Shown here: in pieces, positions 19,999 to 38,572 of the stretch
Position numbering within the stretch: position 1 is the first letter of the stretch
How the letters are laid out: each line of letters begins with the position of its first letter
Sequence record: KR014248
Direction: 5' to 3' (one strand)
Length of the DNA stretch: 64,000 nt
Origin: Escherichia phage vB_EcoM_AYO145A
Notes under the pieces: model-generated
Database searches by the model: none
What the model was told of the DNA's origin: nothing
Seen by the model: the letters and a program-made list of their open reading frames with translations, nothing else
Translations under genes and position numbers: made by a program

Positions 19999-20284
19999 CG
20001 TTAAACTCTCTGACGAAGAAATAATTGACTTTGTTATTACCTACCATAAGGTCAAAGCAGGTGTTCTCAAAAGGTTTGTTGTAGGCATCATATGAAGTGT
20101 ACGTATCAGCTACTTGTTTAGTGTTGAGCTTTTTACTTGATGGGTTTAAGAGGCCACCATACAGTTTCTTGATAGCCTCTTCTACAACAGACCAGATGAT
20201 TTCGTCAGTAATTTCTTCGTACAGGTCAAGTTCACGCTCTAGTGAGAAGTCACAAATAGGGAAAATAACCTGTACTTTACTCAT
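19991..20284 (-). CDS. hypothetical protein
   Basis: 97-aa ORF. Confidence 0.5.
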   Translation of the reverse strand: MSKVQVIFPICDFSLERELDLYEEITDEIIWSVVEEAIKKLYGGLLNPSSKKLNTKQVADTYTSYDAYNKPFENTCFDLMVGNNKVNYFFVREFNDE

Positions 20285-20682
20285 TAACGAATAACCTGTG
20301 TGACTTGAATTGCTTCAGTTACGGACAATTCACCTACTTTCTCTTCTTTGATAAAAGTGAAGGTGAGTTCAACAGGTTCTTCCTCTTCTTCTTCTTCTTG
20401 CTCAACTGGAACACCATTAAGCTCATCAAAGATTGATTGAGTTGTCCAGTCTTCTCCACCATCTGGGTAGTGGATTGCATAAAGAGGAAATTCCACGTCA
20501 TACCAACCAAATACGGGGCAACCATCTGCATCATCACGTACTCGTCGAAGAGTGTTGCCTGATTCTGTAAATCGAAGGCTGAGATTACCATTACACTCAA
20601 AAATTACTGCATCAGCAGGCCCAACATTTTCTCGACCATCATGACCAAATGTGTCAACCTTTACTTGAATCTCGTTATTCAT
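20284..20682 (-). CDS. hypothetical acidic protein
   Basis: 132-aa ORF with EQEEEEEEEP acidic tract. Confidence 0.5.
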   Translation of the reverse strand: MNNEIQVKVDTFGHDGRENVGPADAVIFECNGNLSLRFTESGNTLRRVRDDADGCPVFGWYDVEFPLYAIHYPDGGEDWTTQSIFDELNGVPVEQEEEEEEEPVELTFTFIKEEKVGELSVTEAIQVTQVIR

Positions 20683-21073
20683 AAAAACCTCTCTCTGCTT
20701 GTTCGATTTTTGCTCTTAAAATTTCGCAATGTTGTAAATGGTAGTTAGCTTCTTGTTCATGTGTTGCTAACTGCCTTTCAAGAACAGTTTTATAATAACT
20801 TGCGAGTTGCTCTTTTGTCAATGGGTGTTCTGAAATAATATCAAGTCCACTTTCGCCAAGAGGGTTGAATTGTCCATGTTCATTGACATTGTAAGTCTCA
20901 AACTTGAAGAGGCCATTGTTCACAGACTCAATAGGCGACAGCTCAACAAGCTCTACAGTAAACCGTGTATATACCTTGTCACCTCTTGAAACCACATTGT
21001 TTCCGACAATGCGTACAAGCGAGCCATTACGAGTGTACTTAAAAGTTCCAAAGTCACTAGCCCAAAGTTTCAT
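20675..21073 (-). CDS. hypothetical protein
   Basis: 132-aa ORF. Confidence 0.5.
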   Translation of the reverse strand: MKLWASDFGTFKYTRNGSLVRIVGNNVVSRGDKVYTRFTVELVELSPIESVNNGLFKFETYNVNEHGQFNPLGESGLDIISEHPLTKEQLASYYKTVLERQLATHEQEANYHLQHCEILRAKIEQAERGFYE

Positions 21074-21087
21074 AGTTTTCTCCTTAG

Positions 21088-21114
21088 AAAATAAAAAAGG
21101 CTCCCGAAGGAGCC
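21088..21114 (-). terminator. rho-independent terminator (minus strand)
   Basis: GGCTCCcgaaGGAGCC hairpin; on the minus strand it is followed by TTTTTTATTTTC. Confidence 0.6.
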
Positions 21115-21124
21115 TATGAAGATA

Positions 21125-21589
21125 TTACTTTGGATATACACTGTCAAGATAAATGTCAGCTTCCATTCTACGTCTGTTTTTCAGGCCGTTTGAAGTGACC
21201 TTCTTACCTTTGACTGTAACCTTGTTCCACCACTGCATAGCTTCTGCACAACCGACCTTATTACCAGCATTGTGGCGCTTGATAAATGTGGAATCCTGCA
21301 TAGCCGTGATACCAATGTTGTATGTTTCACTTACCAGTGCATCAAACTCATTCTGAGAAGTTGGAACCTTGATAGATTTGTTCACTGCTGCGACAAACTT
21401 TTCAACATCTGCAAGAAGATACTGTTCAGCCTGTTCAGCAGTAATTTTCATGCCCATCTTAACAGGTTTTCCGTCAATACGGATTGTACCATACCCGATT
21501 GTTGGGATTCCGGCAGAGTCTTCGTAAGCCTCTAACTTCAGACCTTCAAAGAACTTAATAGCTTCTAAACCTTTTCTTGAGAGTTGCAT
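21125..21589 (-). CDS. lysozyme (GH24, T4-lysozyme-like)
   Basis: 154 aa; N-terminal signature LEAIKFFEGLKLEAYEDSAGIPTIGYGT. Confidence 0.8.
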   Translation of the reverse strand: MQLSRKGLEAIKFFEGLKLEAYEDSAGIPTIGYGTIRIDGKPVKMGMKITAEQAEQYLLADVEKFVAAVNKSIKVPTSQNEFDALVSETYNIGITAMQDSTFIKRHNAGNKVGCAEAMQWWNKVTVKGKKVTSNGLKNRRRMEADIYLDSVYPK

Positions 21590-22722
21590 TATGCCTCCCC
21601 TGCTGGGTTAACTGTAACTGTTGCCGCATTAGATGTTACAGAGCCACCTGCACCAGTAACTACACAGGTGTAGCTTCCTGCGTCAGCAGTGATTGCACCT
21701 TCTTTGGTGTAAGTTGCAGTAGTTGCGTCTAGGATGTTTTCCTCACCCTTCTTCCACTGATAACCTGTCGCACCAGTAGCCACAACACTTAGTGTCAAGG
21801 TATCACCTTCAGTGATTTCTTGATTGGTTGGCTGCTGAGTGATTACCGGAAGTGCATTCACAGTAACTGTTGCAGGGTTAGAAGTAACAGAACCACCTGC
21901 ACCTGTTACAACGCAAGTGTATGAACCTGCATCTGCTGGCAGTGCACCAGACTTGCTATAGGTAGCGTTTGTAGCTGAAGGGATGTCAGAGCCATCTTTC
22001 TTCCACTGGTAACCTGTTGCACCTGTTGCAGTCACTGATAGACTGATGTTTCCACCTTCATTAATGGTATGGCTAGAAGGTTGCTGTGTAATCACAGGCA
22101 GTGCGTTCACAGTCACTGTTGCTGCATCTGAGGTAACACTTGTTCCACCCTCTCCAGAGACAACACAAGTGTATGAACCAGCGTCAGAAGGTGCTACTGA
22201 CTGTTTTGTGTAAGTTGCAGAATTGGCACTAGGGATATCCTCACCATCCTTCTTCCACTGATATCCAGTGGCGTTAGTTGCTAGAATGCTTAGAGTAAGT
22301 GTGCCACCCTCATTGACTGTTTGACCTGTTGGTTGCTGAGTAATTGCTGGTGGCTTAATAGCATCCTTCAACTTAGCATTCAACATTGAGAACGGCTTAA
22401 CTCTTGCCAACCATTCACAGTAAATTGTGTCAACATCTTTACCATTGATGATTGCATACTGCAAATCCATGAAGAAATCAGCAGTTCTCATCTGTGCACC
22501 AACACTGTAAAGGAGTTCATCACTAAAAGGAACTTTGTAGTCTGGTTTGTAGTCAAACTTCTTAACTTCTGCAATATCAGCTTCAGGCCAATACGAGCTA
22601 TAGGTGAGTGGTAAAATAGCCTCTTGATATGTTCTAAAGTCATATCTCTTACCAGCTTTTACATTTGCAATGAAGCCCTTCACAAACTCTTTGAAGTCTG
22701 GGTAAGTCTTTGCTTTAATCAT
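21589..22722 (-). CDS. protein with three tandem Ig-like domains
   Basis: 377 aa; N-terminal domain paralogous to the next gene; three near-identical repeats of about 83 aa (PVITQQP...GATGYQWKKDG...DAGSYTCVV.GAGGSVTSN.ATVTVNA). Confidence 0.7.
   Translation of the reverse strand: MIKAKTYPDFKEFVKGFIANVKAGKRYDFRTYQEAILPLTYSSYWPEADIAEVKKFDYKPDYKVPFSDELLYSVGAQMRTADFFMDLQYAIINGKDVDTIYCEWLARVKPFSMLNAKLKDAIKPPAITQQPTGQTVNEGGTLTLSILATNATGYQWKKDGEDIPSANSATYTKQSVAPSDAGSYTCVVSGEGGTSVTSDAATVTVNALPVITQQPSSHTINEGGNISLSVTATGATGYQWKKDGSDIPSATNATYSKSGALPADAGSYTCVVTGAGGSVTSNPATVTVNALPVITQQPTNQEITEGDTLTLSVVATGATGYQWKKGEENILDATTATYTKEGAITADAGSYTCVVTGAGGSVTSNAATVTVNPAGEA
21592..22350 (-). repeat. three tandem repeats of about 250 bp encoding Ig-like domains
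   Basis: seen at protein level inside the 21589..22722 CDS. Confidence 0.7.
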
Positions 22723-23090
22723 TTCTTTTTAGCCTCTAAATGTGCGTTTAGTCTAAAATAGCCTTTGTGATGCGGAGATACATCACCAACAACAATACCT
22801 TTAACCTTATAACCTTTACCAATTACATACTGGATATCCATAAGGAATCTTCCAAGACCAACAATATGGAACATTGGATATAATAGATTCTCAGAATCTG
22901 GAATATTGATTTCAGGTTTGTAGGTGCGTTGTTCGCTTGTTGGTGTAATATCTTCTTCAGGCCATTTACTGAGTCTCCATGTCAAAGGTGTTGGGATAAC
23001 ATCATTAAGGTTGTACCTTTCACCATTTTGCACGGAATTGATATAGGATTGTAGGAAGCAATAAAAGTCTTTTGCACTCTTAGCTTTCAT
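22719..23090 (-). CDS. hypothetical protein, paralog of the N-terminal domain of the Ig-repeat protein
   Basis: 123 aa; shares Y..D..Y/F..MDLQY.I..GK pattern with the 21589..22722 N-terminus. Confidence 0.55.
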   Translation of the reverse strand: MKAKSAKDFYCFLQSYINSVQNGERYNLNDVIPTPLTWRLSKWPEEDITPTSEQRTYKPEINIPDSENLLYPMFHIVGLGRFLMDIQYVIGKGYKVKGIVVGDVSPHHKGYFRLNAHLEAKKK

Positions 23091-23137
23091 TAAATATCCT
23101 TATAAATAATTAAAGGGGCATCAGCCCCTATTCACAC

Positions 23138-23728
23138 TTAAGCTTTAGTCTTAAGTAGGTTCTTAAGTTTTTTAAGATTCATACTCTCATCAAACTTAAA
23201 ACCAAATCCATTGACATAATCAATGAACTCGGATTTCTTACTGAGTGACAATGCGTAACTCATATCAAAGTTCTTACTTGTTTCTGCGTCTGGACTAGAG
23301 TTCACATCAAATGAAATTTCTGTAGGTTCTTGCTTACTTTTCCTAATATTATCAACCAACAAGCATGTATAGTTTGCTGGATAGAAATTTACACTACCAT
23401 CAACGTAGCTGTACTTATTATTATGGATAAGGTTGGAAAATACCTTAAGGAATGTTTCTGAGTCGTGGCAAACAAGTTTGAATTGGCTGCTCTCTCCAAG
23501 CGCAACTAATGAGTACGGACTTTCACTATCAAAGTCATAATTTGGATTTGATGTTGTAACCGTCACACGCATTAGGTTATTGGCAATAGTCTTCTGCTTG
23601 AAAGAATTTGGAACATAGTGAAGACCTCTATCGCACTGATTAACTAATTCTTTTAATAGGTCATTTGCATACGGTGAATTAATTGATACAGAGCCATCAC
23701 TATTGTAATTAAAACTTACTGTTAACAT
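23138..23728 (-). CDS. hypothetical protein
   Basis: 196-aa ORF. Confidence 0.5.
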   Translation of the reverse strand: MLTVSFNYNSDGSVSINSPYANDLLKELVNQCDRGLHYVPNSFKQKTIANNLMRVTVTTSNPNYDFDSESPYSLVALGESSQFKLVCHDSETFLKVFSNLIHNNKYSYVDGSVNFYPANYTCLLVDNIRKSKQEPTEISFDVNSSPDAETSKNFDMSYALSLSKKSEFIDYVNGFGFKFDESMNLKKLKNLLKTKA

Positions 23729-23955
23729 TTTTCAGTTCTCCTGCGGTTTATAATTTTGCTGCAATAGAGAAACGAAGTAAACTCACTGGAAGAAACCACT
23801 AAGTGTTGTTCACTAGATTGAGCCATTGCCCTGAAATACATTCCAGTCAAAGCATCATAGTGACTATTCTTTCCAATTGAGGTTATATAGCCATGACTCT
23901 TTGCAGTTTGATATAAATCTATAATATCTGCGATTTCTAATTGGGAACTACACAT
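23722..23955 (-). CDS. hypothetical small protein
   Basis: 77-aa ORF. Confidence 0.4.
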   Translation of the reverse strand: MCSSQLEIADIIDLYQTAKSHGYITSIGKNSHYDALTGMYFRAMAQSSEQHLVVSSSEFTSFLYCSKIINRRRTEKC

Positions 23956-24119
23956 AGATAATCCTCTTGTCTTCTGTAATTTTGAAAGAACAGGTACAGA
24001 CCAATTTCAGAGGACGAATAGTAGATTAATTCTACCCTTTTTGATTCCTTACAGTGATTGGTATTCTTACCTTTCTTCGGTTTATTTGATTTTCTCATTA
24101 AGTCTCCTTTGTAGAACAA
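23937..24119 (-). CDS. hypothetical small basic protein
   Basis: 60-aa ORF. Confidence 0.35.
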   Translation of the reverse strand: MFYKGDLMRKSNKPKKGKNTNHCKESKRVELIYYSSSEIGLYLFFQNYRRQEDYLCVVPN

Positions 24120-24347
24120 GGCAGACCTACAGCTTTAAGTAAGATGGTACAGTAATCCATACAACAAGTCAAGAACTATTGCAAGTTAAAAAAGTTGTTG
24201 ACAAAGGACTTGACAAGGTGTAGGCTTATAAATACTTAGAAGATAACTTAAAAGGTTCCTCTAAAAAGGCTATTTAAACAGATATCTTTCTGGATATCTA
24301 TCTTTTATCTTAAAAGCCTTTTAAGAGGTCTTATAAGAGGCATACCA

Positions 24348-24719
24348 ATGAAAAACAGAACAAACAAAGGCCAGTTTAAAAAAGGCCAGTCTGGAAACCC
24401 ATCTGGAAGACCAAAAGGCTCTCGTAACAAAAGCTCACTCGTAAAAGCTCAACTGACCATTGATAATTCTGCTGAGTTCGCTGCAAAGCTGTTTGAGGCG
24501 ATTGTTACAAGGGACGCGGCTAAGCTTGCAGAGTTCGGGTTAAACACAGATGACGTAACCATCAAGAGTATGATTGAGGTCGGTAAAACTATCTTTACTC
24601 ACTCAGCAGGTGAGATGAAAGCACTTGCAGCAGACACTAAGAAGACTCCTGATAATGGTGGTCAACAACAGACAGATAACAAACCAACGTTCTCTGCTGT
24701 AGCGACTCTCAAAAAATAA
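24348..24719 (+). CDS. hypothetical protein with basic Gly-rich N-terminus
   Basis: 123 aa; KGQSGNPSGRPKGSRNK N-terminus. Confidence 0.5.
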   Translation: MKNRTNKGQFKKGQSGNPSGRPKGSRNKSSLVKAQLTIDNSAEFAAKLFEAIVTRDAAKLAEFGLNTDDVTIKSMIEVGKTIFTHSAGEMKALAADTKKTPDNGGQQQTDNKPTFSAVATLKK

Positions 24720-24731
24720 TTTTAAAAGGTG

Positions 24732-24768
24732 TTGACAGACTCTACAAAGTTGCTCTAAAGTCTGTCAC
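24732..24768 (+). promoter_or_regulatory. promoter TTGACA-N18-TAAAGT overlapped by a 9-bp inverted repeat
   Basis: TTGACAGACT ... AGTCTGTCA; -10 TAAAGT; upstream of the Ro60-like gene. Confidence 0.45.
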
Positions 24769-24800
24769 ATCAAACAACAAATGAGAGAAGAGAGTAAAAT

Positions 24801-26216
24801 ATGAGCGAATTATTTAAACATGCGCACCTTCATGCAGGTCGAACTGAAAATGGTGCTGTAAACCATACTTCATCAATGTCTGCTCTTGTAGACTTTTACA
24901 AAGCTGCTGGTTCTAGCCGTAGCAATGTAGGAATCTTACCAGACCTGTTCTACAAAGCTTTGCGTGAGGATGTTGATGTTGCAGTTCGTATTTTGCTTCA
25001 TATGCGAGATGTACGAGAAGGTATGGGTGAGCGTAAAGCTTTCCGAACTGTTTTACTTCAAGCGATTGAAGATAAAGTTTTAGAGCCTACGCAGGTTCTT
25101 CGCATTATGGATAAGATTGCAGAGCTTGGTCGTTTTGATGACTTCAAAATCTTCGTGGGTACTCGTTTCGAGACAGATGCCTTCAAACATTTAGAAGCAG
25201 CATTACTAGACCCTGCAACAGCAGGTTTGGCAGCTAAGTGGTTACCACGAGTCAAACCACGTCATAAGCAGTTTGTAAAACGTTTCTGCAAGTTTGCAAA
25301 CTTGAGTGAGAAAGAGTACCGCACACTGTTGTCTGCACTATCTGATACAGTTGAACAAAAAATCTCTGCTAATGAGTTTGGTAAGATTGACTACAGTAAG
25401 ATTCCTTCACTTGCTGCTGCACGTTACCAAAAACTCTTTAACCGTAAAGATGGAGAACGCTACAAAGCTTACATCGAGTCACTCTCAAAAGGTGAGGCCA
25501 AGATTAACGCTGGTGCTGTTTACCCATACGATGTGATTAAATCTATCAAGTATGGTAATGCAGATGTTGCTAATGAGCAGTGGAAAGCACTACCAAACTG
25601 GATGGTAGAAGGTGAAAACATCCTGTGTATGACTGATGTTTCAAGCTCAATGTCTTGGGTGAATCTTGGTTCAATCACTGCCCTTGATATTGGTGTATCC
25701 CTTGCCTTGTATGTAGCAGAACGCAATACAGGTTGTTTTAAGAATGAGTTAATGGTTTATTCAACAAACCCTCATTTCATCGAATTGAGTGGTGATTTAC
25801 GAAACCGTCATCGTCAGATAATGCGTCATGTTGAATATGGCTCAACTAACTTACAAGCAGCTTTTGACCGTATTCTTGAAATAGGCAAGAGAAACAACTT
25901 GACTCAGAAAGATATGCCAAGTAAGCTTATTATCTTCTCTGATATGGAGTTCAATCAGGTTGATGGAGCTAACGGTCGTACAAACTTTGAAGCAATTCAG
26001 AGTAAGTACAAAAAAGCTGGATATGAGATGCCACAACTGGTATTCTGGTACTTAGCAAACCGTAATGGTACTTGCGAAGTATCTGTTAAGGATAATGGTG
26101 TAGCAATGGTATCAGGGTTCTCTCCAGCCACTTTAAAAGCTCTGCTTGGTGGTGAGAAGTTTGACCCAATCAGCGTAATGCTCAAAGCAGTAATGATTGA
26201 CCGTTATATCTGGTAA
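24801..26216 (+). CDS. Ro60-like TROVE + vWA protein (Rsr-like)
   Basis: 471 aa; vWA MIDAS-like ILCMTDVSSSMSW and LIIFSDMEFNQ; central VYPYDVIKSI and C-terminal NG...GF..ATL resemble Ro60 as I recall it. Confidence 0.55.
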   Translation: MSELFKHAHLHAGRTENGAVNHTSSMSALVDFYKAAGSSRSNVGILPDLFYKALREDVDVAVRILLHMRDVREGMGERKAFRTVLLQAIEDKVLEPTQVLRIMDKIAELGRFDDFKIFVGTRFETDAFKHLEAALLDPATAGLAAKWLPRVKPRHKQFVKRFCKFANLSEKEYRTLLSALSDTVEQKISANEFGKIDYSKIPSLAAARYQKLFNRKDGERYKAYIESLSKGEAKINAGAVYPYDVIKSIKYGNADVANEQWKALPNWMVEGENILCMTDVSSSMSWVNLGSITALDIGVSLALYVAERNTGCFKNELMVYSTNPHFIELSGDLRNRHRQIMRHVEYGSTNLQAAFDRILEIGKRNNLTQKDMPSKLIIFSDMEFNQVDGANGRTNFEAIQSKYKKAGYEMPQLVFWYLANRNGTCEVSVKDNGVAMVSGFSPATLKALLGGEKFDPISVMLKAVMIDRYIW

Positions 26217-37468: not shown

Positions 37469-38572
37469 ATGTTGACTAATTCTGAAAAAAGCAGATTTTT
37501 CCTTGCTGACCTGACTGGTGAAGTCCAGTCTATCCCAAATACTTATGGGTATATTTCCAACTTAGGTCTGTTCCGTTCAGCACCAATCACCCAAACTACT
37601 TTCCTGATGGACTTGACTGATTGGGATGTTAGCTTGCTTGATGCGGTAGACCGTGATAGCCGTAAAGCAGAGACTAGCGCACCTGAGCGTGTTCGTCAAA
37701 TCAGCTTCCCAATGATGTACTTCAAAGAAGTTGAAAGCATTACTCCTGATGAGATTCAGGGTGTACGTCAGCCAGGCACTGCAAACGAACTGACTACTGA
37801 AGCTGTAGTACGTGCTAAGAAGCTGATGAAGATTCGTACCAAGTTCGATATTACTCGTGAGTTCCTGTTTATGCAAGCTCTGAAGGGTAAAGTTGTTGAT
37901 GCTCGTGGTACTCTGTACGCTGACCTGTACAAGCAGTTCGATGTTGAGAAGAAGACTATTTACTTCGACCTTGACAACCCTAATGCTGACATCGACGCTT
38001 CTATTGAAGAACTGCGTATGCACATGGAAGACGAAGCTAAGACTGGCACTGTAATCAACGGTGAAGAGATTCACGTAGTTGTTGACCGTGTATTCTTCAG
38101 CAAACTGACTAAGCATCCTAAGATTCGTGATGCTTATCTTGCACAGCAGACTCCGCTGGCTTGGCAACAGATTACTGGTTCTCTGAGAACTGGTGGTACT
38201 GACGGCGTTCAGGCTCATATGAACACCTTCTACTACGGTGGTGTTAAGTTTGTCCAGTACAACGGTAAGTTCAAAGACAAGCGTGGTAAGGTTCACACTC
38301 TGGTTAGCATTGATGGTGCAGCAGCAACTGTTGGTGTTGGTCATGCCTTCCCTAACGTTTCTATGCTGGGTGAAGCAAACAACATCTTCGAAGTGGCATA
38401 TGGTCCATGCCCTAAGATGGGTTATGCAAATACACTTGGTCAGGAACTGTACGTATTCGAATACGAAAAAGACCGTGACGAAGGTATTGACTTCGAAGCT
38501 CACTCTTACATGCTGCCATACTGTACTCGTCCTCAGTTGCTGGTAGATGTTCGTGCTGACGCCAAAGACTAA
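37469..38572 (+). CDS. major capsid protein
   Basis: 367 aa directly after protease/decoration genes; assigned by position and size. Confidence 0.6.
   Translation: MLTNSEKSRFFLADLTGEVQSIPNTYGYISNLGLFRSAPITQTTFLMDLTDWDVSLLDAVDRDSRKAETSAPERVRQISFPMMYFKEVESITPDEIQGVRQPGTANELTTEAVVRAKKLMKIRTKFDITREFLFMQALKGKVVDARGTLYADLYKQFDVEKKTIYFDLDNPNADIDASIEELRMHMEDEAKTGTVINGEEIHVVVDRVFFSKLTKHPKIRDAYLAQQTPLAWQQITGSLRTGGTDGVQAHMNTFYYGGVKFVQYNGKFKDKRGKVHTLVSIDGAAATVGVGHAFPNVSMLGEANNIFEVAYGPCPKMGYANTLGQELYVFEYEKDRDEGIDFEAHSYMLPYCTRPQLLVDVRADAKD

Follow-up and report, generated by a model that had tools for sequence, protein, structure and literature searches.

The closest described relatives of the locus considered here come from two cryo-electron microscopy (cryo-EM) studies, one of Escherichia phage JohannRWettstein (Bas63; Sci Adv 2025, PMC12609058) and one of Shigella phage Sf14, a Mooglevirus (Commun Biol 2025, PMC11821841). 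In each capsid (T=9), a decoration protein, termed Hex-Dec in Bas63 and gp20 in Sf14, sits as a monomer at the centre of the facet-edge hexamers; the other hexamers are without density, and the immunoglobulin-like (Ig-like) domains of the protein extend outward and are too flexible to be resolved (PMC12609058, PMC11821841). In Sf14, gp20 is salt-bridged through Arg79 and Arg107 to the major capsid protein at its Asp221, and mass spectrometry detected gp20 in virions (PMC11821841). In Bas63, the Hex-Dec gene lies more than 10 kb outside the structural module (Sci Adv 2025, PMC12609058). A third relative, gp36 of Felix O1, was also found in virions by mass spectrometry (31.6 kDa, score 813, 44% coverage; Felix O1 paper). 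Here we analyzed a 64,000-nucleotide stretch of Escherichia phage vB_EcoM_AYO145A (record KR014248; hereafter the window), which carries on its minus strand a gene for a 377-aa protein (21589..22722) and, directly upstream, a gene for a 123-aa protein (22719..23090). Both open reading frames exist exactly where a preliminary description of this DNA had placed them. The window is that of a Felixounavirus: its top DNA match is VpaE1_ev78 (95.8%), and 249 phage records match it.

The 377-aa protein is very probably, by homology, the Felixounavirus Hex-Dec that binds capsid hexamers, i.e. the counterpart of Bas63 Hex-Dec, Sf14 gp20 and the Felix O1 gp36 "tail protein". Several lines of evidence carried this assignment: i) a phmmer search of the Protein Data Bank (PDB) matched 9NCF chain S (Bas63, deposited as "immunoglobulin-like domain protein") with an E-value of 5e-279 and 9C2D/9C3A chain S (Sf14, deposited as "tail protein") with an E-value of 4e-171, and the protein falls in phrog_3995 (E 2e-210); ii) its capsid-binding domain at the N-terminus (CapBD; aa 1-123, 22354..22722 on the minus strand) is identical to that of Bas63 Hex-Dec at 118 of 123 positions and to that of Sf14 gp20 at 106 of 123; iii) Arg79 and Arg107 are both present in this domain and are invariant among the Hex-Dec sequences of alignment A1; iv) the presumptive binding partner, the major capsid protein of the window (37469..38572, plus strand), differs by few substitutions from 9ncf_A over residues 1-366 (E 3e-247), and its residue 221 is Asp. 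Placement on the capsid of this phage is thus inferred from the 86-96% identity and the kept contact residues, and nothing contradicting the identification as Hex-Dec was met in the analysis. The same domain order is seen in the Bas63 orthologue, whose capsid protein is nearly identical; Sf14 gp20 is a homologue from a different genus in which Arg79, Arg107 and Asp221 are all kept and which also has three Ig units, although these are more diverged from those of the window.

On this basis, one CapBD monomer would be lodged at the centre of each facet-edge hexamer (quasi-threefold, pentamer-adjacent) of a T=9 capsid, anchoring one copy per icosahedral asymmetric unit, and would be fixed in place through salt bridges that Arg79 and Arg107 form with Asp221 of the capsid protein. 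The Ig-like domains after it, three in number and acidic (pI of the Ig part, 4.3), would project outward as a flexible fibre. That the protein instead belongs to the tail, as its name implies in phrog_3995 and in many GenBank records ("tail protein", "putative tail protein", "major tail protein") and as gp36 was called in the Felix O1 paper ("major tail protein"), is highly improbable: in two independent cryo-EM studies, the N-terminal domain of orthologues was modelled in the centres of capsid hexamers, and the "tail" label spread by annotation from the early Felix O1 naming rather than from localisation. Most database records nonetheless keep this wrong label for the Hex-Dec gene.

The preliminary description had likened the protein to Hoc-type capsid decoration proteins, and part of this comparison stands. 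Like T4 Hoc, Hex-Dec is a hexamer-centre monomer whose acidic fibre bears a row of Ig-like domains, non-essential and with a proposed role in adhesion or environment sensing; furthermore, PHROG "Hoc-like head decoration" profiles match the Ig region of the 377-aa protein. Membership of the Hoc family, on the other hand, does not follow. The capsid-binding domain of Hoc is C-terminal, whereas in the window protein the CapBD occupies aa 1-123 and the Ig domains come after it; the capsid-binding folds of Hex-Dec and Hoc are topologically distinct, with minimal sequence conservation (PMC12609058); and no Hoc chain was among the best 60 of 123 PDB sequence matches. On both counts, domain order and capsid-binding fold, the protein stands outside the Hoc family, although it is Hoc-like in action.

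Two further comparisons were limited to the Ig part. The architecture of T5 pb10 (PDB 5LXK, 8ZVI) matches, and its Ig domain is homologous (E 7e-13 and 2.5e-12), but pb10 has a single Ig domain and the match is confined to it (8zvi_a residues 81-158); no similarity between the capsid-binding domains was detectable, and a Foldseek search with a model of the 123-aa protein gave no pb10 match. The closest solved structures to the Ig units of the window (21592-22353) are the repeats of the Aureispira grappling-hook protein GhpA (PDB 9FLP; E 1.8e-91, 18 matched stretches), which share the Ig repeat subtype. GhpA, however, is a bacterial surface protein of 5898 aa without a capsid-binding domain, and the repeat type is all that the two have in common. 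A 2026 paper on a "Hoc-like" protein of Shigella phage DSF2 was also considered and set aside, as it concerns an unrelated family.

As for function, the analogy of T4 Hoc and T5 pb10 suggests that the fibre most likely serves to adhere, weakly and non-essentially, to mucus glycans, cell envelopes or similar surfaces. The same role is proposed in both the Bas63 and the Sf14 paper (PMC12609058, PMC11821841). In a genome-wide knockout screen of Bas63 (PhageMaP), the importance of the Ig protein gp124 was greater on E. coli S17-1 than on other hosts.

The preliminary description had proposed a domain search and virion proteomics as checks on the protein. In Pfam searches, Ig_3 (E 2.7e-32), Ig_2 and I-set each matched the 377-aa sequence in three stretches, and the orthologues Felix O1 gp36 and Sf14 gp20 were detected in purified virions; because of this mass spectrometry, the findings are the reverse of a protein that is absent from virions and devoid of an Ig fold. 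The domain layout was also as described, namely an N-terminal domain followed by three tandem units: the CapBD of 123 aa, Ig-like unit 1 of 84 aa (aa 124-207; 22102..22353), unit 2 of 83 aa (aa 208-290; 21853..22101), and unit 3 together with a short C-terminal tail, 87 aa (aa 291-377; 21592..21852), all on the minus strand. The repeat structure is far beyond chance. Yet the units are not "near-identical", as had been claimed: they share only 65-70% of their amino acids and 63-65% of their nucleotides, and the longest exact DNA word in common is 11-16 nt. Tandem Repeats Finder, run on positions 20000-25000, did not find a ~250-bp array, and the units were therefore defined from the protein, being too diverged at the DNA level for this program. 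Each Ig unit contains a single Cys, in a YTC motif, and lacks a partner Cys, so no intradomain disulfide is expected.

Variation in the number of units between isolates, which had been predicted from the repeats, is borne out: genes carry one to four Ig units. The Bas63 paper had reported one to four predicted Ig domains across the genus (PMC12609058), and the Sf14 paper two versus three (PMC11821841). Among 27 related viral contigs and the window, complete genes fell into size classes of 210/211, 294/298, 377 and 461 aa, and 60 isolate records, picked at even intervals from the 219 that match, gave gene spans of ~633, 885, 1134 and 1386 nt. To relate the units to each other, each gene was mapped in 36-nt windows against the four units (U1 to U4) of the four-unit reference L007. 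The window gene mapped as U1-U2-U4, its three units being orthologues of these and U3 being absent. Bas63 has four units, so that the window differs from it by the missing third; Ig1-2 are identical to Bas63 Ig1-2 at 152 of 167 positions, and window Ig3 is identical to Bas63 Ig4 at 80 of 85. Two-unit genes were U1-U4, the three-unit gene of L008 ended in a U3/U4 hybrid, and the one-unit genes of L014, L018 and L017 were U1/U4 chimeras with three different in-register breakpoints. The chimeric breakpoints thus indicate that diverged units recombine in register, repeatedly, and that unit number changes in this way. The earlier idea that the repeats are recombination-prone is thereby supported despite their low DNA similarity: the similarity of the tandem DNA had been overstated, but in-register recombinants do exist.

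The location of the gene is equally in line with the preliminary description, which had put it next to the lysozyme gene and outside the structural module. The Hex-Dec TAA stop overlaps the ATG of the endolysin gene as TAATG (21125..21589, minus strand; a T4-type phage lysozyme, PF00959, E 1e-40), and ~14.7 kb separate Hex-Dec from the major capsid gene, which is on the opposite strand. The same endolysin-adjacent position outside the structural module is found in wV8, in Felix O1 and in a divergent metagenomic contig. In Felix O1 the equivalents are ORF35 (lysin), ORF36 (the Hex-Dec gene) and ORF37 (the 123-aa protein), forming the same trio in the order ORF37-ORF36-ORF35; its gp36 (NP_944848), misnamed as a tail protein, has two Ig units and 294 aa, and its gp37 is NP_944851.

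The main feature of the locus has therefore been described already, with regard to the protein family, where it sits on the capsid, how its count of Ig domains varies and how far its gene lies from the structural module. All three earlier proposals (Hoc-type decoration, variable repeats and location) are published for near-identical orthologues. Because two cryo-EM papers of 2025 already describe the Hex-Dec family, the feature is of little significance in itself. What is new here is the U1-U2-U4 make-up of the window gene, the recombinant structure of the short alleles and the 123-aa neighbour, of which the text of neither cryo-EM paper (PMC12609058, PMC11821841) makes mention. From 2024 on, these two studies were the only literature found on the gene pair.

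This neighbour (phrog_4463, function unknown; 22719..23090, minus strand) is, as judged from sequence and from a structural model, a true paralogue of the CapBD. The adjacent gene had been taken for a duplicate of the N-terminal domain, and the two align by BLASTP at 37% identity over 101 aa (E 1e-16); a phmmer search with the paralogue found 9ncf_S (E 1e-11). With an AlphaFold2 model of moderate quality (pLDDT 67), Foldseek returned only two significant PDB matches, which were 9ncf_S and 9c2d_S (TM 0.61, E 4e-5). Pfam gave no match for the paralogue, and NCBIfam and PADLOC gave nothing meaningful for either it or Hex-Dec. Of 27 related contigs, 26 carry the gene immediately upstream of Hex-Dec, and 232 of the 251 phage records that match contain it at an identity of at least 60%. 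The divergent metagenomic contig (87 kb) has the same trio: its paralogue is 122 aa long and 45% identical to that of the window, its Hex-Dec has 298 aa, and a lysozyme completes the set. The duplication is therefore old. Moreover, the paralogue is under purifying selection, with a median dN/dS of 0.11 (versus 0.045 for the CapBD), and its C-terminal half is very strongly conserved. It is net basic (pI 9.1). The capsid contacts, on the other hand, have changed: the position of Arg79 is Gly in all 23 aligned paralogues, and that of Arg107 is His or Gln, with Arg only in the distant P0099.

Expression and junction structure tie the two genes together. In Felix O1, ORF36 and ORF37 both belong to the RT-PCR class that peaks at 60 min, alongside structural genes (Felix O1 paper). 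In the window, the TGA stop of the paralogue overlaps the ATG of Hex-Dec as ATGA (junction at 22719-22740, minus strand: GAGGCTAAAAAGAAATGA), and the Hex-Dec Shine-Dalgarno sequence, GAGG, sits within the last codons of the paralogue. An AAAAAG run is also present at the junction, with Hex-Dec in the -1 frame, and a -1 frameshift on it that would fuse the paralogue to Hex-Dec was considered. This was rejected because AAAAAG is absent from the Mooglevirus loci, the Suspvirus-like loci and the divergent contig (L033); across lineages only the GAGG and the stop/start overlap are kept. No gp37 peptides were reported from Felix O1 virions.

The paralogue is thus probably a functional but dispensable late protein that is unlikely to be a stoichiometric part of the mature capsid. 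Our best guess is that its most likely place of action is not the mature particle but, for example, head assembly or the handling of Hex-Dec. It is an ancient duplicate of the CapBD that lost the Arg79 anchor; it is made late, together with Hex-Dec, yet is missing from the virion protein lists. A first variant, to which we can lend tentative credence at most, is a non-structural factor of the assembly stage, which would occupy hexamer centres for a time while the procapsid is still unexpanded, or accompany Hex-Dec until it binds, and be released afterwards. Late expression, the ATGA overlap and the GAGG inside the 3' end of the paralogue (both kept across lineages), purifying selection and the lack of the protein in virion lists are all consistent with such a factor, as is its dispensability in some isolates, a trait of many accessory assembly factors; against it, alleles of the paralogue and of the CapBD recombine independently, and we know of no decoration protein of the Hex-Dec kind that needs a chaperone. 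A function unrelated to the capsid (e.g., binding of a host or phage factor), or the slow decay of a duplicate, is also conceivable but doubtful. The lost Arg79 anchor, a deletion allele common to isolates from different countries and the lack of Pfam, NCBIfam or PADLOC matches would fit; simple decay, however, is contradicted by the dN/dS of 0.11 and by retention in lineages diverged to 45% identity, and for a new function the analysis yielded no positive evidence.

Could the paralogue nevertheless be on the particle? If so, it would be a further decoration protein, one devoid of Ig domains, and would sit on hexamers left free by Hex-Dec (the 20 true threefold ones) or on a small number of special sites close to the portal. 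The fold family shared with the CapBD, late expression with Hex-Dec and the strongly conserved C-terminal half agree with this, and a pI of 9.1 would suit the Asp-lined hexamer centre described for Sf14. Yet both cryo-EM papers report the other hexamers to be without density, all paralogues have Gly instead of Arg79 and most have His or Gln instead of Arg107, and the protein is missing from virion lists of Felix O1 and VpaE1 that include other proteins of 10-14 kDa; we therefore consider such a role quite improbable. A broader proposal, that the paralogue is an undescribed head-decoration factor (a transient procapsid cap, a gatekeeper, or a sub-stoichiometric component at special sites), is unlikely as well. 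The gatekeeper version, if true, would help explain why Hex-Dec decorates the 60 hexamers at facet edges but leaves the 20 at threefold positions bare, and in the special-site version, if true, a sub-stoichiometric paralogue would have been lost to icosahedral averaging.

Several points weigh against the overall picture of a capsid-bound, weakly adhesive Hex-Dec accompanied by an off-virion paralogue. Capsid placement was shown in the orthologues of Bas63 and Sf14, this phage being known from its sequence alone, and the adhesion role draws on analogy and on the single screen of Bas63 gp124. Absence from virions is itself weak negative evidence because the lists are thresholded: the paralogue (ORF37) is not in the Felix O1 virion protein list, which is cut at 25% coverage and holds proteins of 10-14 kDa, and its VpaE1 equivalent (ORF40c) is not among the virion proteins that the text on VpaE1 describes; the Sf14 mass-spectrometry table is confined to structural proteins. 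Finally, ~8% of the records (19 of 251) have no intact paralogue; from its degradation in this share of isolates it follows that the function is dispensable. Even so, a conserved late paralogue without the capsid anchor constitutes an unexplained accessory gene, and the natural deletion alleles make testing it cheap.

One such allele, with the start codon lost or changed and an internal deletion of ~180-225 bp, was shared by L018 (3809-4000), L031 (REP12, OQ174511; 1306-1497) and L032 (Z31, MN655999; 1306-1497), REP12 being from the USA and Z31 from China. The paralogues fell into two allele groups, ~98-100% and ~85-88% identical to that of the window. Across L001-L020, divergence between genomes was uncoupled for the paralogue (22722-23090) and the CapBD (22354-22722): between L013 and the window, for example, dS was 0.07 for the paralogue and 0.40 for the CapBD, which points to recombination between the two neighbouring genes.

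Beyond these phages, the domain family is narrow. Among 1.84 billion representative proteins, no more than 12 clusters were matched by a profile built from the CapBD and the paralogue. In distant relatives the CapBD was fused to Big_2-type domains (P0101, P0102 and P0104), to another Ig-like domain (P0103) or to a lysine-rich tail (P0105); one such locus with a swapped display domain is L035:869-1489. The gene upstream of the CapBD-Big_2 protein P0101 was not a CapBD relative, so the tandem arrangement was not found there. With so few clusters and such varied fusions, the CapBD is a narrow, phage-specific anchor to which different display domains have been attached. It thereby represents a natural display platform (one to four I-set Ig units here, Big_2 in distant relatives) with possible use in phage display or engineering.

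The trio of paralogue, Hex-Dec and lysozyme genes is tightly packed, with terminator-like hairpins on both sides. The hairpin directly upstream of the paralogue (23114..23129, minus strand) ends the preceding unit; it corresponds to a rho-independent terminator in wV8 and is listed for Felix O1. The other, with a T-run, follows the endolysin gene, the third of the unit (21098..21115, minus strand), and equals t35 of Felix O1 and an annotated terminator in wV8. The flanking genes, at 23138-23728 (minus strand; 196 aa, phrog_4034) and 20675-21073 (minus strand; 132 aa, phrog_4266), encode conserved Felixounavirus proteins, neither of which had a Pfam match. Among the matching records, one named Staphylococcus phage SA1 has a Felix O1-type gene pair at ~99% identity and looks to be mislabelled or contaminated. 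In Shigella phage Z31 (L032:1498-2070), in which the paralogue is also lost, Hex-Dec is annotated as two open reading frames of 405 and 168 nt, and the decoration gene appears to be disrupted or to contain a sequencing error.

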